From: Candidatus Omnitrophota bacterium
Lineage (GTDB): Bacteria > Omnitrophota > Gorgyraeia > Duberdicusellales > 4484-171
NCBI GenBank assembly: GCA_028710385.1
Contig: JAQTUC010000002.1
Span: 1-28,859, forward strand
Reading direction: 5' to 3'
DNA: 28,859 nt
Part shown: positions 175 through 17,250 of the stretch, in pieces
How the letters are laid out: the number at the start of each line of letters is the position of its first letter
How positions within the stretch are numbered: position 1 is the stretch's first letter
Notes under the pieces: model-generated
Seen by the model: only the letters and a program-made list of their open reading frames with translations
Databases searched by the model: none
What the model was told of the DNA's origin: nothing
Made by a program: the position numbers and the translations under genes

Positions 175-1866
175 TCACAACGGCTCATCCGGGCCTGTAA
201 CTTTTAACACCTCTTCAAGCGTTGTCAGGCCTTTAATTATTTTAACCAATCCATCTTCCCTTAAGGTGCGCATGCCAAGCAGCCTTGCTTCTCTTTTTAT
301 TATATGCTCTGACACTGAACTAGTAATTAACGCTCTTACTTTTAAACCGACCGGGAGATACTCGCAAATAACGGTCCTTCCCTTATAACCTATATTCTGG
401 CAGGCAGAGCATCCTTTGGCTTTATAAAGTTTGGCGTCTTTGCTTATAGAATATTTTTCCCTGATTCCATCCGGCATTTTGTATTCTTCTTTGCATTTAG
501 GGCAAAGCGTGCGCACAAGACGCTGCGTTAAAACTCCTATAAGAGTTGATGAAAGCAAAAACGGCTCAATACCCATATTAAGAAGCCTGGTTACGGAGCC
601 GGCGCTCGTTGTTGTATGAAGGGTGGACAAAACCAGATGCCCTGTTAAGGCCGCCTTTATCGCGATATCCGCGGTGTCAAAATCCCTTATTTCGCCAATC
701 ATTATAATATCCGGATCCTGGCGCAGAATAGAGCGCAGGCATGATGCGAAAGTTAAATTTATCTGAGGATTAATGCTTACCTGGTTTATGCCTTTTAACT
801 GGTATTCTATCGGGTCTTCTACCGTTATAATATTTTTTTCCGGGCTATAAACATGGGATATGGCAGCATAAAGAGATGTTGTCTTGCCGCTTCCTGTGGG
901 GCCGCAAACAAGAATAAGGCCGTGGGGCTTTAAGCTGTCTTCTTTTATTCCTTTTAAAACATCCTGTTCAAACCCCAAAAGGTCCAGGTCAAGAAGCGCT
1001 GTGGTTTTATCCAAAATTCTTAAAGCACATTTTTCGCCCATGCTTGAGGGAAGAACAGAAACCCTGAAATCAATATTTCTGTCCATGATAATGCTTCTGA
1101 ACCTGCCTTCCTGAGGAAGCCTGTGCTCTGCAATATTTAAATTGCACATTACTTTTATGCGCGAGACTACAAAAGGATGCATTTTTTTGGGGAAACTCTC
1201 TGCTTCCTTAAGAAGACCGTCAACTCTGAATCTTACACGGCTGGTTTTTTCAAGCGGCTCTATCAATATATCCGACGCTCGCGCGTATACGGCTTTTTTT
1301 AATACCGAATTTGTAAACTTTATTACCGGCGCTTCATCTATTGAGCCTATTTCTTCCTCTACAGCGTCTTTATCTCTTATTATTTCAAGATTTTCAGGTT
1401 TTTGGCCGCCTATAATATCCTCAAGCGAAGTAAGCGGCTGGCGGCTGTAATGGGTGGCTATCGCCTCTTTCATTTCGGAAAAAGGCGCTATAACGGGATT
1501 TATTTCGCATCCTGTGATTTTTTTTAAGTCATCTATGGCAAGGACATTTAATGGGTCGCTCATCGCAACAGTTACTGTGTTGCCGATTTTTCCTATAGGC
1601 ATAACCTGCAGGCTGGCTGCGGTTTTTTCAGGTATAAGGTCAAGAATTTCTTTTGTGATATTGAGGTTTAAAACGCGCATCGGGGGAACCGAAAGATAAC
1701 CGGAAAGTATGCTAACGAGCTGCGCCTCCTGCATAATCCCAAGCTTAACGAATAACTCAACCAAAGACCCGCCCTTTTCTTTCTGCATAGAAAGGGCCTT
1801 TTCAAGGTCTTCTTTGGAAACAAGTTTATTATCTATCAGGTAGTCGGTAAATTTTTCTTTTGTCAT
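175..1866 (-). CDS. pilB: Type IV pilus assembly / GspE-family ATPase (PilB-like)
   Basis: Walker A GPTGSGKTT, TVEDPIEY Asp box, Walker B LRQDPDIIMIGEIRD, His box GHLVLSTLHT, CPKC...CSAC zinc motif, N-terminal T2SSE_N domain. Confidence 0.93.
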   Translation of the reverse strand: MTKEKFTDYLIDNKLVSKEDLEKALSMQKEKGGSLVELFVKLGIMQEAQLVSILSGYLSVPPMRVLNLNITKEILDLIPEKTAASLQVMPIGKIGNTVTVAMSDPLNVLAIDDLKKITGCEINPVIAPFSEMKEAIATHYSRQPLTSLEDIIGGQKPENLEIIRDKDAVEEEIGSIDEAPVIKFTNSVLKKAVYARASDILIEPLEKTSRVRFRVDGLLKEAESFPKKMHPFVVSRIKVMCNLNIAEHRLPQEGRFRSIIMDRNIDFRVSVLPSSMGEKCALRILDKTTALLDLDLLGFEQDVLKGIKEDSLKPHGLILVCGPTGSGKTTSLYAAISHVYSPEKNIITVEDPIEYQLKGINQVSINPQINLTFASCLRSILRQDPDIIMIGEIRDFDTADIAIKAALTGHLVLSTLHTTTSAGSVTRLLNMGIEPFLLSSTLIGVLTQRLVRTLCPKCKEEYKMPDGIREKYSISKDAKLYKAKGCSACQNIGYKGRTVICEYLPVGLKVRALITSSVSEHIIKREARLLGMRTLREDGLVKIIKGLTTLEEVLKVTGPDEPL

Positions 1867-3719: not shown

Positions 3720-4106
3720 TCAATTAAAGCTGGTTTCCTTAAAGGAAAGTATTACGTTTATGCCCTTAAGTATCTCATCTATGGTGTAAGGTTTTGTAAC
3801 GTAGTAATCTGCCTCCATGGAGTAACCCTTTTTTATATCATCTATTTCTTTTTTTCCGGTTGCAAGCATAACGAAAACATCGGGCTTATTTTTCTTAATC
3901 CACCTAAGCACTTCCAAACCGTCAAGCTGCGGCAGCATTATATCCAGAACAACCACATCGGGCATAAAATCCTGTACCTTTTGTATGGCGTCTTTCCCGT
4001 CTTCGGAAGTTTCAACTGTAAACTCCAGCCGGCGCAGGCCATCCGCCAGAAAAGTCAGGGTTTCTTTTTCGTCTTCCACAATCAGAATTTTTCTGCCTCT
4101 AATCAT
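3720..4106 (-). CDS. Single-domain response regulator (CheY-like receiver)
   Basis: ILIVEDE, phosphoacceptor in VVLDIMLP, LATG, YVTKP. Confidence 0.92.
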   Translation of the reverse strand: MIRGRKILIVEDEKETLTFLADGLRRLEFTVETSEDGKDAIQKVQDFMPDVVVLDIMLPQLDGLEVLRWIKKNKPDVFVMLATGKKEIDDIKKGYSMEADYYVTKPYTIDEILKGINVILSFKETSFN

Positions 4107-7602: not shown

Positions 7603-8907
7603 TTAATCTTCCTCCCAGGACAACGTAATATAATCTCCGGTAGTAGGCATAAAAGGCGGCGGAGAACTGAGCAGCCTTGAATCATAAGAATAATTCTTGG
7701 AATAACCGCTTACTTTCTGGCCGGTTGAACCGTTGAATGTCCCAACAGGGCCTCTTTCATCCTGTATTATTCCTCCGTAAACCGTTAAAGTGCCCTTTGC
7801 CGGGCCGACCCAATAATTCTCCATCATAAAAGAAGTGTTCAGCGCCATGGCGCATGCATCTATTTCCATATTGGACGGCGCAGAATCATCTACAACTATG
7901 TCTGATTCGGATATAATCCCCATTGTATCATCCGAAGCGGGATTTACCCGCGGATTGTCGGCGTAAACTATGCTATTTGGTATAACAACGTCGGCGCTGG
8001 CGCCCACAGTAAGCCTGCCGTTTAGCGTGCCTGATATGGTTAAATTGCCGCCGCTTACGAACAAAGCTCCGTTAGCCGGTATGCTCATATTCTTATTGTT
8101 CCATTTCTTTTTGGAATTAGTAACGTTCATGGTGCCGTTACTGTTTAAAACTACTCTGGAGTTGCCTTGCAAGTATATGCCGCCGCTTGCGGCTGCTGAG
8201 CGAAGGCTCAATGCCTGGCTGGGCATATTAATAGTTTCCGCACCAAAACCAACGCCCTCCTCAAAAGTAGGCTCATCGTAAGGCGCGTTAGTCAGCTGTG
8301 TTGAATTTATGTTGTTTCCGTTATTGTAATAACGCAAATAATCATCCACCGAACGGACTTCACTCTGAAACACAGGGTCTCCTGCAATATTGAAATGGCC
8401 GTTTGTATGCGTAGGCCCGTTTAAAGTATCGTTGGTATTAAACCACACGTTTGACCCGTCAAAAACTTCTCTATCCGTAAACCAGAGATAGCGCGCGTAG
8501 TTGTCAACCTGAACATAATTGGCAAGGATCCTTCTTGCGTTTCCGAAAATTCCGGTTGAGGTTACCTTGTATCTGCGAATGCCTGTTGAAGCGCCAACCA
8601 TTCCAAGGTCAGCGATAACAACGCTGTAAGTACCTCCTCCAAGGCTCTCTACAGAACCCCAGGGATTTGTCCTGTCGCCTATTGGAGGGGAGGACTGGGA
8701 CCTTAGCCATACAATAGCGTGATCAAGGCCGGCTTCAGCAATATTAAAAGCAGCAGTTCTTCTTTTAAATATATCCACAAGAAGGCTTTGATTTATGCCT
8801 ATGCTTATAAACGCTGCCGCATACATAAGAAGAGCCACTATAACCACCAAACTTAGCATAAGCGTTGAGCCTTTTTTGTTTTTAAGTTTTATAGGTGTGT
8901 TATACAT
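7603..8907 (-). CDS. PilX-like minor pilin, cassette 2 (DUF4900-like C-terminal region)
   Basis: KNKKG|STLMLSLVVIVALL class III signal lacking Glu+5 (PilX-type); AFNIAEAGLDHA PilX N-terminal motif. Confidence 0.75.
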   Translation of the reverse strand: MYNTPIKLKNKKGSTLMLSLVVIVALLMYAAAFISIGINQSLLVDIFKRRTAAFNIAEAGLDHAIVWLRSQSSPPIGDRTNPWGSVESLGGGTYSVVIADLGMVGASTGIRRYKVTSTGIFGNARRILANYVQVDNYARYLWFTDREVFDGSNVWFNTNDTLNGPTHTNGHFNIAGDPVFQSEVRSVDDYLRYYNNGNNINSTQLTNAPYDEPTFEEGVGFGAETINMPSQALSLRSAAASGGIYLQGNSRVVLNSNGTMNVTNSKKKWNNKNMSIPANGALFVSGGNLTISGTLNGRLTVGASADVVIPNSIVYADNPRVNPASDDTMGIISESDIVVDDSAPSNMEIDACAMALNTSFMMENYWVGPAKGTLTVYGGIIQDERGPVGTFNGSTGQKVSGYSKNYSYDSRLLSSPPPFMPTTGDYITLSWEED

Positions 8908-8909
8908 AG

Positions 8910-9521
8910 TTAGTTCCTCATTTTTATTATGAATTGCGCCGCATCCGTAAAAACTCTTCCTTTTGAATTTTGCCTGGTGGCGGTAACATTTACCTCAATA
9001 ACATTAACCGGAGAAACCGGCCTTGTGAACTGAAGGCCCGTAATGTTACGCGCAAGAATAGACGTTGCCGCCGGCGTTGTCCTTACTATTTCTCCATTGG
9101 CATTTAAACTGTATGTAATTAGATCCGGGGACCATTCAATGCGGCCGGCGGAATTTAAAATAGTTCCGTCACTGTCAATGTCAGCCGGTATGGCGAAAGT
9201 AATGGTATTGCTTGTTGAGCCGCTTGCAAGGTTTGTCTGCGCGGCCTGAGTAAATTTAAGCTCTTTCTCCATAGGAATTACCGCCTTAACCAGTTCGCGC
9301 CGCAAAGAAACCTCAACGTCTCCGGTAAGCCAGGAATTAATCCCGCTGTTTAACACGAGAAAAGCCGCGGCAATAAGTATAAAAAAAATACACACAACCA
9401 CAAGCAGTTCCGCGAGAGTAAACCCTGTTAGAAAAATATGTTTTCGGGCGGCAAGCGCCTTACAAGATATTTTTACCGACTCTTTTGCGCGTTTTTCTAA
9501 CGGGGCAAAACTTCTTTTCAT
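8910..9521 (-). CDS. PilW-like prepilin, cassette 2, with a 33-aa leader caused by an in-frame repeat insertion
   Basis: LTG|FTLAELLVVVCIFFILIAAAF N-methylation motif. Confidence 0.85.
   Translation of the reverse strand: MKRSFAPLEKRAKESVKISCKALAARKHIFLTGFTLAELLVVVCIFFILIAAAFLVLNSGINSWLTGDVEVSLRRELVKAVIPMEKELKFTQAAQTNLASGSTSNTITFAIPADIDSDGTILNSAGRIEWSPDLITYSLNANGEIVRTTPAATSILARNITGLQFTRPVSPVNVIEVNVTATRQNSKGRVFTDAAQFIIKMRN
9420..9506. repeat. 87-bp palindromic element inside the prepilin leader
   Basis: Arms CCCTGTTAGAAAAA (9423-9436) and TTTTTCTAACGGGG (9492-9505); 9417-9435 is identical over 19 bp to 17165-17183. Confidence 0.85.
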
Positions 9522-9525
9522 AATT

Positions 9526-9966
9526 TTACCTGTTAGCTATCCTGGTTGTTAATTCTACCGGGGAATCTATTATGCCATTACCGTTTACATCTTCGCCGAC
9601 ATCAAGGTTTCCGTTTAAGTTTGAATCTTCGCCTATCACTCTTCCTCTGTGCCTGAAACAGGCACTTATGGTAATTTGCAAAAGCTCCGGGTTGGTATCG
9701 TCAACATATACAACGCCCATGCTTTCCGGTATGTCGTTAATTGTAAAATTCAGCCCGTTATAGTCATTCATTATTTCGGTAAATGGGGTGCTGCGTATTT
9801 CCTCCATAAGGGCCTGCGCCGCGTTTGTTGCAATGTTAATATTTTTATCGGTGTCAATAAGCATAAAACACGACAGGTAAGTCACCAGTATGCTGCTTAT
9901 GGCAATTATCAGTATGGCCAGGGCTATAAGCACTTCAATAATAGTAAAACTTTTTTTTGTTTTCAT
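9526..9966 (-). CDS. PilV-like prepilin, cassette 2
   Basis: KKS|FTIIEVLIALAILIIAISSIL; C-terminal DSNLNGNLD and DVNGNGIID loops. Confidence 0.85.
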   Translation of the reverse strand: MKTKKSFTIIEVLIALAILIIAISSILVTYLSCFMLIDTDKNINIATNAAQALMEEIRSTPFTEIMNDYNGLNFTINDIPESMGVVYVDDTNPELLQITISACFRHRGRVIGEDSNLNGNLDVGEDVNGNGIIDSPVELTTRIANR

Positions 9967-9974
9967 TGTTTTGT

Positions 9975-11027
9975 TTAAGGAATTATTTCATATGGATTCT
10001 GCTGTTCGTTCCAGGAAACCACCTGGACATCAGCGTCTATGCCGAGATTCCTGATTGCTGTCATATACTCCGCATTATAGGTTACAGTGGCATTTCCGTT
10101 TAAACGGGCCTCTTCTCCTGCCCATACTCCTCCGTCAACATTGAGCTGGCCTCCTCCGCCGTTTACGCGAAATTCCCCTCTTGTATATATTGCCCCGTCC
10201 ACTGTGCCGTTTCCATTTATTGTAGCATCATATGTTACATCCGGATTTGTGATAACGTCGCCTACAACAACAAAAAACCCGCCTATAGTTCCAATGTTGC
10301 CTCTAAGTTCCAAATTGCCTAAAACATAAACTACATTGGGCGTTCCCGTTGTTGGATCTGCCGGGTTTGAAGGCGGGCTATACCAGAAGTTTGAGGGAAA
10401 AGTCTGGCTGCCTGTTGCCTGGTTTACAAGTTTACCGGAAGCATTATATGCGTACACGTTAGACTGGGCTTCGGCTACAGTTAAAAGCTGACTAAAGCTT
10501 AATTTTGCCAAAGGATTGATTGAAGCATCCTGGACAATATCACCGTGGACATTGCTTGTGTTATCAATCTGGTCAGCATAGCGTATTTTTCCCGTAACAT
10601 CGTAAGCGTCGCCGTTTAGGTTGACGTCTCCGGCGCTGTAAATAGCGTTTTCGTAGAAATTAGGCGGAATGGCTTTTGACACAACCACCTCAAGAACCCG
10701 TGTAATCCTTGCCGTTCCTGTTGCGGGAATAAACCCCCGCGCGATAACTCTTCTGTTTGAGCCTTCCACAGTAACATCGCAACTATAACCTCCAACGCCA
10801 AGAGAAGTCTCCCACAGGCCGGTTCCGCTCTGTGAATAACTGCTTCTAAGTTCATGCATGGCGCGGTTAACGCCAGCTTCAGCAAGCCAGAATGCCTGGA
10901 TAAATTCTTCGTTTCTTTCCGCAAGGCGGTTTTCAGAGATGCTGCGAAGTAAAATTCCTATAGCCATAACCCCCAGAACAACAGCCATAAAAATAGCCAC
11001 AATTAAAACTGAACCTTTTTTAGTCAT
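9975..11027 (-). CDS. PilX-like minor pilin, cassette 1
   Basis: TKKG|SVLIVAIFMAVVL; AFWLAEAGVNRA. Confidence 0.8.
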   Translation of the reverse strand: MTKKGSVLIVAIFMAVVLGVMAIGILLRSISENRLAERNEEFIQAFWLAEAGVNRAMHELRSSYSQSGTGLWETSLGVGGYSCDVTVEGSNRRVIARGFIPATGTARITRVLEVVVSKAIPPNFYENAIYSAGDVNLNGDAYDVTGKIRYADQIDNTSNVHGDIVQDASINPLAKLSFSQLLTVAEAQSNVYAYNASGKLVNQATGSQTFPSNFWYSPPSNPADPTTGTPNVVYVLGNLELRGNIGTIGGFFVVVGDVITNPDVTYDATINGNGTVDGAIYTRGEFRVNGGGGQLNVDGGVWAGEEARLNGNATVTYNAEYMTAIRNLGIDADVQVVSWNEQQNPYEIIP

Positions 11028-11529
11028 TGCGCAGCCTCACTTTTTCCAGTAAATCAAATTGCAGAACTCTTTGCCGCGCGGTTCTGCTTGCGGCAACGCG
11101 CACATTTAAAACATTTGTGCAGGCTACCGAGCAGCTGTCGGTTGCGGCGTTCCAGCAAAAACATAAATTATTTATATCGTTAGTCAAATATCTTTTTGTG
11201 CCAGCAGGGTGTTCTCTTACGGTGCGAGTTACTCCGTTTACGGTTTCCAAATAATAACTTATGGGGTTTGTGCTTCCCTGGACATTAAATGTAATTTTCG
11301 CACCGCTTAAAGCCGCATCCAAAACAATTGTGTCCGGATCGCCTTGCCTTATTTCCCTGGACATCGCATCTATCACATATCTTACTGTCTGCTGCAACTG
11401 CGCATACGCCATGTCTTCATACCAGATTCTGTCAGCAGCATTTAAAACTCCGAGTATGGCGGCAGCGATTAAAACAAAAATCGCAATGCTTATTAAAACT
11501 TCAATAAGGGTTGTGCCTCTTTTAAACAT
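11020..11529 (-). CDS. PilW-like prepilin, cassette 1
   Basis: KRG|TTLIEVLISIAIFVLIAAAIL...LQQTVRYVIDAMSREIRQG. Confidence 0.85.
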   Translation of the reverse strand: MFKRGTTLIEVLISIAIFVLIAAAILGVLNAADRIWYEDMAYAQLQQTVRYVIDAMSREIRQGDPDTIVLDAALSGAKITFNVQGSTNPISYYLETVNGVTRTVREHPAGTKRYLTNDINNLCFCWNAATDSCSVACTNVLNVRVAASRTARQRVLQFDLLEKVRLRND

Positions 11530-11542
11530 AATACACTTATTG

Positions 11543-12004
11543 CTATGGTTCTGTGATTAAAGTTTCAAGCGGCATTGATTTATTTCTGGACCTGTCTGTC
11601 CAGTTCACCGTAACAAGCACATCCAGCAATTCGCTGGTTGCTGTGGGCGCTTCGCCGGTTGAGGCATCAGAAACAGTAACTGTTATGGCCTCGTTAGTAA
11701 GGTAAAAAAGGTCCCTGTTCTGGAAATCGCTCGTTGCGCTTAAATTCCATTGGCCGGCCCCGGTTGTTCTAAGGTTGTTAAAACCGTTTATCGTTGATGC
11801 GCTGTCTTTTATCTCTTCCATAATATATTGGGCATGTGTTGCTGCTATGGACAAATTCCGGCTTATTTCATTTAATAATATACACGCAATAAAACTGGTT
11901 AAAAGCCCTGCGAAAATAACAGTCAGAAATACCGCTATAAGCATAAGCTCTGCCAGGGTAAAACTTTTTGCCGATAAAATCTTCTTTTTTGTCTTCATAT
12001 TCAT
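11543..12004 (-). CDS. PilV-like prepilin, cassette 1
   Basis: AKS|FTLAELMLIAVFLTVIFAGLL...ATHAQYIMEEIK...VTVNWTD. Confidence 0.82.
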   Translation of the reverse strand: MNMKTKKKILSAKSFTLAELMLIAVFLTVIFAGLLTSFIACILLNEISRNLSIAATHAQYIMEEIKDSASTINGFNNLRTTGAGQWNLSATSDFQNRDLFYLTNEAITVTVSDASTGEAPTATSELLDVLVTVNWTDRSRNKSMPLETLITEP

Positions 12005-12137: not shown

Positions 12138-13667
12138 CTAAACCCACAGGTTTTTGTCCAAAGACCTGTATTGTATTGCCTCGGAAATATCCTCGGCAGA
12201 AATATTAGCTCTTCCAGCGAGGTCGGCGATTGTCCTTGAAACCTTAAGTATTTTGTCATAAGCTCTGGCGCTGAAACTAAAATGCGAGATTGCCATTTTA
12301 AGCAATTCCTGAGCAGGGCCCTCAAGGGTGCAGAATTTACGCAGCTGCCGGTTATTCATCTGGGAATTAAAAAATATTTTCTCATCCTTAAATCTTCGTT
12401 CCTGTATGCTGCGGACATTTTCAACCCTGTCTTTTATTGACTCTGAGCTTTCCGCTTTAAAATCAGCGGATATAAGGTCTTCTGTGCTGATTGCCGAGAG
12501 CTCAAGATGAATATCTATCCTGTCTAACAGGGGCCCTGAAATTTTATTTCTATATTTTTGTATCTGGTAACTTGTACAATGGCAGGATTTCTCTTTTGAG
12601 CCGAAATAGCCGCACGGGCAGGGGTTCATTGCGGCCGCAAATAAAAAACGCGAGGGGAATTTAAGATGCCTGGCTGCTCTTGATATGTTTATTGAACCGT
12701 CTTCAAGCGGCTGCCTTAAAGCTTCCAAAGCATCCCTGCCAAATTCCGGAAGCTCGTCAAGGAAAAGCACTCCGTTATGGGAAAGAGTTATTTCTCCCGG
12801 CTTAATATTTGTCCCTCCTCCAACCAAAGCAACACCTGAAGATGTGTGATGCGGCGAACGAAACGGCCTTTCCTTTACTACCGGCTGTGTTTTATCAAGC
12901 AACCCGGCTATGCTGTAAATTTTGGTAACTTCAAGGCTCTCCTCAAGCGCCATGTCCGGCAGAATTGTAGGAAGGCGGCGCGCCAGCATGGTTTTGCCAA
13001 CCCCTGGCGCTCCAAGTAAGATTGCGTTGTGCATTCCTGCTGCCGCAACCTCAAGAGCCCTTTTGGCAAAAGACTGGCCCTTAACTTCTGAAAAATCAAC
13101 CTCATATCTGGTTTTTACAGAAGTTAAATCAACTGTTTCGGCGCGGAAAGGCTTTTTTTCAATTGTACCGCAGAGAAAAGACACAGCTTCGTTAAGGCTC
13201 TTTACAGGATAAACATCCAGCCCGCAGACAAGCGCTGCTTCGCCGGCATTTTCCTGGGGAACAATGATTTTTTTATTCTTTGCTTTTGCGTATAGCGCCA
13301 TGGGGAAAACCCCGCTTACGGGCTTAACTAAGCCTTCCAGAGAGAGCTCCCCTATTATGAAATAAGAAGAAACATTGAAATGAATTTGAGCGGAAGAAGA
13401 AAGAATGCCAAGCGCAATAGCCAGGTCAAAATGAGTGCCTTCTTTTTTAACGTTTGCGGGTGCCAGATTTATGGTTATTTTTTGGGAAGGAAATTCAAAA
13501 CCGCTGTTTTTTATCCCTGAACGCAGCCGGTCCCTGCTCTCGCGTACCGCTATGTCGCAAAGCCCGATTAAGGAAACTGCGGGAAGGCCCCTTTGGACAT
13601 CAACCTCAACAGAAACCGGATAGACATCCAAGCCAAGGCTGCCTAAGGAAGTTGTCTTAGAAACCAC
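12138..13667 (-). CDS. comM: YifB/ComM Mg-chelatase-like AAA+ ATPase
   Basis: INLAPANVKKEGTHFDLAIA, GAPGVGKTM, RPFRSPHHT, PGEITLSHNGVLFLDELPEF, MNPCPCG, SGPLLDRID, SARAYDKILKVSRTIADL. Confidence 0.93.
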   Translation of the reverse strand: MVSKTTSLGSLGLDVYPVSVEVDVQRGLPAVSLIGLCDIAVRESRDRLRSGIKNSGFEFPSQKITINLAPANVKKEGTHFDLAIALGILSSSAQIHFNVSSYFIIGELSLEGLVKPVSGVFPMALYAKAKNKKIIVPQENAGEAALVCGLDVYPVKSLNEAVSFLCGTIEKKPFRAETVDLTSVKTRYEVDFSEVKGQSFAKRALEVAAAGMHNAILLGAPGVGKTMLARRLPTILPDMALEESLEVTKIYSIAGLLDKTQPVVKERPFRSPHHTSSGVALVGGGTNIKPGEITLSHNGVLFLDELPEFGRDALEALRQPLEDGSINISRAARHLKFPSRFLFAAAMNPCPCGYFGSKEKSCHCTSYQIQKYRNKISGPLLDRIDIHLELSAISTEDLISADFKAESSESIKDRVENVRSIQERRFKDEKIFFNSQMNNRQLRKFCTLEGPAQELLKMAISHFSFSARAYDKILKVSRTIADLAGRANISAEDISEAIQYRSLDKNLWV

Positions 13668-17164: not shown

Positions 17165-17203
17165 AGTAAACCCTGTTAGAAAACATCATTTTTCTAACAG
17201 GGT
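17165..17203. repeat. Perfect 14-bp hairpin after the attR tRNA fragment; probable original tRNA terminator and member of the CTAACRGGG repeat family
   Basis: ACCCTGTTAGAAAA (17170-17183) / TTTTCTAACAGGGT (17190-17203). Confidence 0.75.
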
Positions 17204-17205
17204 AA

Positions 17206-17250
17206 ATGGCGGCGAGTGGATTTGAACCACCGACGCAACGGGTATGAGCC
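17206..17250 (-). repeat. att site: duplicated 3' half of tRNA-Met
   Basis: ATGGCGGCGAGTGGATTTGAACCACCGACGCAACGGGTATGAGCC, identical to 24968-25012. Confidence 0.95.

Follow-up and report, generated by a model that had tools for sequence, protein, structure and literature searches.

Among described systems, the closest to the one considered here is that of the Ssn nucleases and their NTS repeats (Chenal et al. 2025, PMC11893778), in which the gene for a single-domain GIY-YIG protein of ~90 amino acids is framed by hairpin repeats, copies of which are dispersed over the genome. The authors of that work liken the NTS-ssnA-NTS arrangement to an insertion sequence and offer mobility as a hypothesis; in their article pilin appears in the reference list only, and the words MITE (miniature inverted-repeat transposable element) and selfish are absent. 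A second precedent is provided by the Rickettsia palindromic elements (RPEs), which a review of MITEs (PMC10969869) describes as small palindromic repeats that lie in frame in genes and are translated within the host protein. Here we examine an 83-bp palindromic element found in the leader-coding portion of a GspJ-like minor pseudopilin gene (positions 8910-9521, minus strand) in a 28,859-nucleotide stretch of an Omnitrophota genome (contig JAQTUC010000002.1, positions 1 to 28,859; hereafter the window). We consider it highly probable that this is a gene-less, hairpin-ended mobile element which, together with a 4-nt duplication, inserted in frame at the prepilin cleavage site and rebuilt that site in the process. 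A literature search returned no published description of a hairpin element that rebuilds a prepilin site.

The analyzed genome (G000) is an Omnitrophota metagenome-assembled genome (MAG) of 1.46 Mb in 179 contigs, estimated to be 84.6% complete and derived from a landfill metagenome; related MAGs carry the name Candidatus Omnitrophota. According to the list of open reading frames (ORFs) and its translations, the gene at 8910-9521 encodes a protein of 203 amino acids that begins MKRSFAPLEKRAKESVKISCKALAARKHIFLTG|FTLAELLVVV, i.e. MKRSFAPLEKRAKESVKISCKALAARKHIFLTG|FTLAELLVVVCIFFILIAAAF; its leader is 34 residues long, and its class III signal reads ..FLTG|FTLAELLVVVCIFFILIAAAF. The first ATG (9521) is followed by no other in-frame ATG, GTG or TTG before the G|FT codons, and therefore the entire 34-residue leader must be translated. 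The match of the product to the gspJ profile TIGR01711 is weak (E 2e-6, below the cut-off), and its alignment begins at residue 33 and profile position 2, which should be the expected start of the mature pseudopilin. Orthologs display 44-63% identity over residues about 30-203. The class III prepilin motif (Gly, Ala or Ser at -1, Phe at +1, Glu at +5, followed by ~20 hydrophobic residues) is present as LTG|FTLAELLVVVCIFFILIAAAF, and neither PF07963 nor TIGR02532 matches the protein at E values up to 0.01; we retain the prepilin call because the motif is plain, the neighboring paralog passes PF07963, and orthologs and paralogs alike share the class III motif.

The terminal arms of the insert are 14 nt long and complementary at 13 of 14 positions. 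The arm adjoining the cleavage site (9423-9436; coding strand TTTTTCTAACAGGG) is read as F-L-T-G and gives the Gly at -1, and the arm toward the start codon (9492-9505; coding strand CCCCGTTAGAAAAA) is read as (A)P-L-E-K. The element that they bound (9423-9505; coding strand CCCCGTTAGAAAAA...TTTTTCTAACAGGG) encodes (A)PLEKRAKESVKISCKALAARKHIFLTG and contains an imperfect inner palindrome (9432-9474) whose 19-nt arms, 9432-9450 and 9456-9474, are 79% complementary. It is flanked by a 4-nt direct repeat, with TTTA on the coding strand next to the mature pilin (9419-9422; the Phe codon and the first base of Thr) and TTTG near the start codon (9506-9509; Phe5 and the first base of Ala6), such that the two copies differ by one change and agree at three of four positions. 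The borders of the element can slide across this flanking repeat, and the reading adopted here is 83 bp of element plus a 4-nt direct repeat, or 87 bp. Excision of these 87 bp (codons 6-34) leaves MKRS|FTLAEL, akin to the KKS|FT and AKS|FT of two paralogs in the same row of genes (MKTKKS|FTIIEVL and ..SAKS|FTLAEL). The element holds no gene, and its small size and want of transposase coding are those of a MITE, as are the terminal inverted repeats, target-site duplication and many dispersed copies, each of which is found in the element or its family. It is also a palindromic repeat that lies in frame within an ORF and is translated, as RPEs are. An independent assembly of the source sequencing run spans 8900-9749 with zero differences. 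An earlier note on this DNA, prepared from the sequence alone, had arrived at the same 87-bp excision and the same 14-bp inverted arms and had pointed to a 19-bp identity with a hairpin at 17165-17183; it had proposed a small non-autonomous element that targets TTTAC and regenerates a G|FT site, and had envisaged orthologs in which the site is empty. As described below, the analysis bears this description out.

By comparison with relatives, the 87 extra bases in the leader are an insertion. In the closest syntenic ortholog (G002, same genus, 63% identical), the same upstream gene end is followed by ATGAAAGCTTTTACTCTTGTTGAA, which is read as MKA|FTLVEV with nothing between, and it is because of this empty site that the long leader is given the status of an insertion. 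The gap in the MAFFT alignment of the empty site is slightly displaced, and the boundary was read by eye from the sequences. A homologous gene in a MAG from another family of the same order (G026) carries an insert at the same codons between perfect TTTAC repeats (..AAATCT TTTAC CCCGTTAGAAAAA...TTTTCTAACGGGG TTTAC TTTAGTCGAA), which is translated as ..KSFTPLEK...GFLTG|FTLVEV. The leaders of four other congeners (G001, G003, G005 and G006) were considered as decayed copies and rejected, as their arms match only with five mismatches or not at all, and they have not been counted; since they match so poorly, the genus may have experienced one old insertion or several. Among contigs assembled from public runs, no empty allele of the analyzed strain was seen, and the contig from the source run is identical to the window; a look for RNA runs turned up none. 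A contig from a different sample of the same landfill study (run X3) joins the upstream region (window 9516-9554) straight to GCTTTTACTCTTGTTGAGGTC (AFTLVEV), and represents an empty-site allele of a G002-like relative in the same habitat.

The element belongs to a sizeable family. Approximately 32 inverted pairs of the form CCCGTTAGA...TCTAACGGG occur in the 1.46-Mb genome with variable, gene-less interiors, and the arms are found in 35 of the 85 genomes of the order. Automatic pairing gives sizes that range from 27-bp hairpins to 139 bp, with clear single elements of up to ~117 bp. The motif TTTCTAACRGGG occurs 16 times in the genome (one occurrence for the reversed control), and CTAACRGGG, for which 0.33 occurrences would be expected in the window, is found there five times, a count that none of 100 shuffles reaches; because both motifs exceed their controls, the repeat likeness of the 8910-9521 insert is more than chance. 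The 19 nt of TTTTCTAACAGGGTTTACT recur identically at 17165-17183, again above chance, where they lie within a perfect 14-bp hairpin (-19.5 kcal/mol, z -5.8). This second family member in the window (17166-17207), located directly after a tRNA-like 3' end, is a minimal 30-bp hairpin (17172-17201) with the flanks GTAAAC and GTAAAT. An uptake sequence, in the form of inverted DUS-like pairs, was also entertained and was dropped, the genome holding merely ~32 pairs in 1.46 Mb. Two family members in G000 (C134:1636-1677 and C90:5331-5378, given as contig and positions) lie inside long open frames of 690 and 1384 amino acids in a crude ORF list; both are far from the ends of these ORFs and seemingly in frame, which would make them coding insertions of the RPE type in genes other than pilins. 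A lone CTAACAGGG at window 12524-12532 (plus strand), within a YifB/ComM-like gene (12138-13667) and lacking a partner arm, is probably a chance match.

The sequences that flank the copies in G000 vary from copy to copy but agree within each (GTAAAC/GTAAAC, GTCTAC/GTCTAC, GTTCAC/GTTCAT, ATAAAT/ATAAAT). The majority of copies sit exactly between two same-strand genes, on stop or start codons, and the flanking repeat contains the stop codon of the upstream gene (G-TAA-AC, A-TGA-AC, G-TAG-AC); in one subfamily it also contains the downstream start codon, and the arm bears a GGAGG ribosome-binding site. Identical 4-nt flanks are borne by 114 of 167 distinct collected elements, against 51 expected when the partners are shuffled, and these are TTTA/TAAA in 104 instances and TTCA/TGAA in six. 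Empty sites reconstructed outside of pilin genes yield a logo of roughly R-TTYA-Y, which the codons of a G|FT site (GGR-TTT-ACN) fit, and the TTTAC target is in keeping with both results. The subfamily associated with ATGA stop/start overlaps (C1:2817-2892, C158:3438-3502, C51:6142-6230, C119:10677-10877 and C102:26108-26213) retains the upstream TGA in one flank and the downstream GTG/ATG, preceded by the GGAGG of the arm, in the other. Its members leave a short ORF, MNPV(R/I).., that is a remnant of the N-terminus of the full-length nuclease discussed below (MNPVRPWYYTYVL.., locus L217).

Insertions of this kind recur at prepilin cleavage sites. The search pattern CTAACRGGRTTTACNNTNNTNGAR, composed of the element end, the codons for Phe-Thr, two NTN codons (Leu/Ile/Val/Met/Phe) and Glu, has 14 occurrences in 10 of the 85 genomes of the order and none for its reversed control. 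All 14 are prepilin-type ORFs of differing lengths and interiors, with leaders such as MKITRFTPLEIRRLPKGKLSLTG|FTLLEL and MENPFTPLEKNFTVKRFRSLTG|FTLIEL, and 13 of them contain in their leader either the whole element or a left arm that is degenerate but recognizable; in the remaining one (L048, MKVKFLTG|FT) only the right arm is kept. In a scan of one genome per species, at least 120 loci have the element end at a prepilin site, and those listed come from Omnitrophota, Planctomycetota (Pirellulales, Phycisphaerae, Sedimentisphaerales), many Patescibacteria, Riflebacteria, Ratteibacteria and others, the G|FT site having been rebuilt in many independent pilin genes. Among the matches listed, a left arm is present within 260 nt in 74 of 90, the leaders follow the pattern M..(K/R)GFTPLE...(S/F)LTG|FTLIELLVV, and 102 pilin copies possess both exact arms. 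Eighty-two of the latter are in frame and open, eight are in frame with a stop, and twelve are out of frame; as roughly a third would keep the frame by chance (on frame alone), disrupted pilins have evidently been eliminated. The pilin-bearing loci listed also hold 21 copies outside pilin sites, so that the family is not confined to pilins in other phyla either.

The enrichment at pilin cleavage sites that the earlier note had anticipated stands in part. Recurrence is clear, and G000 contains 5,629 TTTAC sites, of which about a dozen are prepilin sites and 567 are outside of crude ORF calls, which gives a rough excess at pilin sites of ~30-fold relative to random landing, or ~3-fold if landing is confined to non-coding DNA. 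Pilin sites nonetheless constitute a minority niche, accounting for ~6% of the 238 RTTTAC-flanked arms in the order, and the element is not dedicated to them. Because pilin sites are such a minority, and most copies are found on stop or start codons, the enrichment is best read as a good match to the target combined with survival at the few harmless coding sites, and not as dedicated pilin targeting. Two further prepilin genes in G000 have long leaders, C133 at ~650-760 (plus strand; MQVNEIKSPLEKNFVESKPLAGFAFSRARHGKTVKG|FT) and C117 at ~3890-3960 (plus strand; MIMHKEKFVSDMPASLKKRFLKA|FT). The former holds a variant palindrome (CCCCGCTGGAGA...CCTCTGGCGGGG) and the latter ends TTTCTAAAAGCT, which resembles a worn right arm, and each may represent an old insertion of this family.

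The breadth of this recurrence also touches upon a different explanation, namely that the long leader or its palindrome is kept for the sake of pilin function, be it to regulate translation through an mRNA hairpin or to delay processing. The same layout in many pilin genes and phyla, with most copies in frame, is what such a function would produce, and where pilins start inside the element (MKVKFLTG|FT) the element has been co-opted to supply both start codon and leader. However, survival alone would select in-frame copies, and the same hairpins are found between unrelated genes and within other ORFs. Furthermore, the closest ortholog (G002) does without the insert, and the 98-nt RNA fold of the 9423-9505 copy (-21.8 kcal/mol, z -0.87) is no more stable than its shuffles. 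We therefore regard a retained function in the pilin as unlikely, and favor a mobile element that has been tolerated at the cleavage site.

Full-length units in other genomes disclose a gene associated with the family. Two neighboring prepilin genes in a Yanofskybacteria MAG (L058; MGJI01000027.1, 1455-2612) each carry a unit of ~290 bp, and a Ratteibacteria MAG (L105; JAQURI010000013.1) carries one more. In each unit the left arm comes first, followed by an ATG and a GIY-YIG ORF of 86 codons that ends ..SLTG within the right arm; in the L058 and L105 units this ORF is without a stop of its own, and the frame continues into the pilin (FTLIE..). In L058 the reading frame of the nuclease agrees with that of the original pilin start (..GFTPLETT-MFYTYVL..) and with that of the mature pilin (..SLTG|FTLIEIM), and translation could therefore yield the nuclease as a ~100-residue leader, which prepilin peptidase would set free. 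The 86-residue protein matches PF01541 (GIY-YIG) at E 1.5e-16 over residues 1-69, and its nearest solved relative is UPF0213 protein BH0048 (PDB 1ZG2; E 6e-9). Homologs with 57-80% identity to the L105 protein are present in seven genomes of the order, in addition to a broken 56% copy in G029, and the eight closest homolog loci (L210-L217) are flanked by arms on both sides, the arms in G066 being variants. In G065 the layout is ATGAAT|CCCGTTAGA..ORF..TCTAACGGG|ATGAAA, where the duplicated ATGAA provides a TGA stop for the nuclease and restores an ATG to the next gene. The nuclease at L210 (G016:C65:5582-5830), in a genome of the Omnitrophota order, is 80% identical to that of the Ratteibacteria MAG (L105), a degree of identity that suggests recent transfer between phyla; because the arms are also nearly the same across phyla, recent horizontal spread is indicated.

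The earlier note had suggested looking for a Y1/RAYT transposase flanked by the motif, which is to say for a REP-type repeat spread by a Y1 (RAYT or IS200-like) tyrosine transposase. It is true that a short palindrome which often lies just past stop codons and adjoins a fixed pentanucleotide recalls REPs and the targets of IS200/IS605, and Y1_Tnp genes are present in 66 of the 85 genomes of the order. However, a PF01797 search of the order detected no such gene in G000, and of the 32 Y1 loci that were inspected, none has the arms around it; many Y1-rich genomes lack the element altogether. The flanks moreover co-vary within a copy, as duplications do, and the full-length units encode a GIY-YIG protein instead. 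The suggested transposase is not associated with the element, and we consider its involvement quite improbable. Phase variation, with the insert as an invertible on/off switch for the pilin, is less probable still: 14-bp inverted repeats around a 55-bp segment in a surface-structure gene are the classic setting for it, yet many family members have loops of 3-6 nt that cannot invert, no recombinase adjoins 8910-9521, and the contigs that cover the insert region show a single orientation only (contigs being unable to exclude minor forms). Last, a native leader of the type IVb kind, with its likeness to the 17165-17183 hairpin due to chance or assembly error, is to all intents ruled out by the genome-wide family with its 19-nt identity and by the empty site in G002, as well as by the identical independent assembly, even though type IVb pilins naturally carry leaders of 15-30 residues and several congeners also have long ones.

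Given the preference for a mobile insertion, it is reasonable to postulate the following course of events. An 83-bp copy would have entered the prepilin site of the GspJ-like pseudopilin (AGT-TTT-ACT, Ser-Phe-Thr) at its TTTA. The length of the insert preserves the frame, its arms being read free of stops as (T/A)PLEK and FLTG; the duplicated TTTA(C) restores Phe at +1 and Thr at +2, and the terminal GGG of the element gives the Gly at -1. The 29 added residues have a net charge of ~+5 and are not hydrophobic, and for this reason should remain cytoplasmic. Prepilin peptidase, for which the genome has one gene (Peptidase_A24, C137:9025-9435), would presumably cut them off with the leader at LTG|FT and leave the mature pilin unchanged. 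The autonomous form would be the ~290-bp unit, the single gene of which, the GIY-YIG nuclease, either uses a stop that the target duplication provides (LTG-TAA or LTG-TGA) or reads into the pilin. This nuclease would presumably recognize the hairpin, probably as single-stranded DNA of the sort that Ssn nucleases cut, and drive movement. In these compact genomes, surviving copies are almost confined to stop/start junctions and G|FT sites.

The general phenomenon is well supported by comparison of sequences. Beyond it, we put forward, tentatively and with more doubt than conviction, the notion of a minimal transposon whose sole gene is an Ssn-like GIY-YIG single-strand nuclease and which borrows from its host an ATG, a duplicated TAA/TGA and the prepilin-peptidase site. 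Pilin leaders would in that case be a preferred landing site, and the full-length pilin copies in the Yanofskybacteria and Ratteibacteria MAGs would yield the nuclease as a prepilin 'leader' freed by the peptidase.

Several points weigh against the proposal as a whole. In the copy at hand the left flank is TTTG and one arm position is altered, the duplication being preserved at three of four positions. The four congeners mentioned above also have long leaders, and these are only faintly element-like. The enrichment figures derive from approximate counts of sites and from genomes that are related to one another and not independent. To our knowledge, GIY-YIG nucleases are not known to join DNA. 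In addition, no cognate nuclease was found in G000, which is 84.6% complete (best E 2e-9), and as a result activity in this genome cannot be claimed. A search of G000 and all collected loci for an autonomous copy, with arms 300-4000 bp apart and matching flanks, returned only neighboring pilins with small copies.

Four GIY-YIG genes in G000 were examined as the cognate nuclease and rejected. The gene at C42:4268-4531, located behind a tRNA, has an arm-like TTTTCTTAACAGGG after it but lacks a left arm; those on C164 and C80, both broken, and that on C85, which looks intact, belong to other hairpin families. Since there is no close nuclease homolog, and the GIY-YIG genes are broken or belong to other families, the 8910-9521 copy is probably stranded, a relic that is now immobile. 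A second hairpin family, CCCCACACCCAGC, occurs in inverted pairs and is represented in the window at 27783-27833; because it also frames the small GIY-YIG gene at C85:4993-5217, G000 appears to hold several nuclease-plus-hairpin families. The broken GIY-YIG genes on C164 and C80 lie beside a third repeat, and that on C164 is beside a tRNA-like 3' end.

The gene at 8910-9521 is placed within a row of minor-pilin genes. Upstream of it is a PilV/GspI-like paralog (9526-9966, minus strand) that has an unmodified short leader (MKTKKS|FTIIEVL) and matches PF07963 (N_methyl) at E 5.8e-5, above the cut-off. This is followed by a gene that is GspK/ComGG-like by its profile matches (9975-11027), a further gene of the row (11020-11529) and, from the ORF list, the paralog whose leader (..SAKS|FTLAEL) displays the native Ser-Phe-Thr site (11543-12004, minus strand). 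Outside of cellular genomes, the short hairpin form (CCCGTTAGA, 5-35 nt, TCTAACGGG) is present on 74 IMG/VR viral contigs (L230-L303); it is possible that phages are a vehicle for the family, or that these viral-bin contigs are fragments of host DNA.

If the proposal is correct, the element is an example of selfish DNA that resides within coding sequence at almost no cost, in that the peptide it adds is cut off anyway and the cut site is rebuilt. It would account for the unusually long prepilin leaders encountered here among Omnitrophota, Planctomycetota and Patescibacteria; for the purposes of annotation such leaders would be insertions and not a new class of pilin. In comparison to MITEs and REP/BIME repeats, the family is likewise short, gene-less and multi-copy, with terminal inverted repeats, a short target duplication and a frequent location at gene ends; it differs in that its full-length relative encodes a GIY-YIG protein and not a DDE or Y1 transposase, and in the conservation of its arms across phyla. 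The UPF0213 or YhbQ-type GIY-YIG proteins (PDB 1ZG2, BH0048), which include the nearest solved relative of the nuclease, are annotated as ordinary cellular genes of unknown function, and the name of the PDB entry carries no element context. The element shares with RPEs its palindromic nature and its translation in frame. As the two are described, however, the RPE peptide stays in the mature protein, whereas the pilin insert lies in a cleaved leader and rebuilds the site of cleavage; the taxa are also different, and for the pilin-leader family a candidate enzyme is known.

The comparison with Ssn is the closest. The hairpin of the present family (CCCGTTAGA..) is unlike that of Ssn (CGTCATTCCCGCG..GCGGGAATC), and its arms (CCCGTTAGA/TCTAACGGG) differ from the NTS/SRM consensus CGTCATTCCCGCGMAVGCGGGAATCYRG. 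The family is further distinguished by its 4-nt flanking duplications, by an ORF that runs without a stop through the arm, and by gene-less miniature copies, as well as by insertion on start or stop codons and at prepilin sites, of which the passages of PMC11893778 that were consulted make no mention. Nevertheless, the full-length copies in other genomes (L058, L105, L210-L217) encode an 86-residue, single-domain GIY-YIG protein with arms on both sides, as in the Ssn arrangement. A very widespread hairpin repeat is thereby tied to a tiny GIY-YIG nuclease, and the family bears upon the question of mobility that was raised for the NTS-ssnA-NTS unit.

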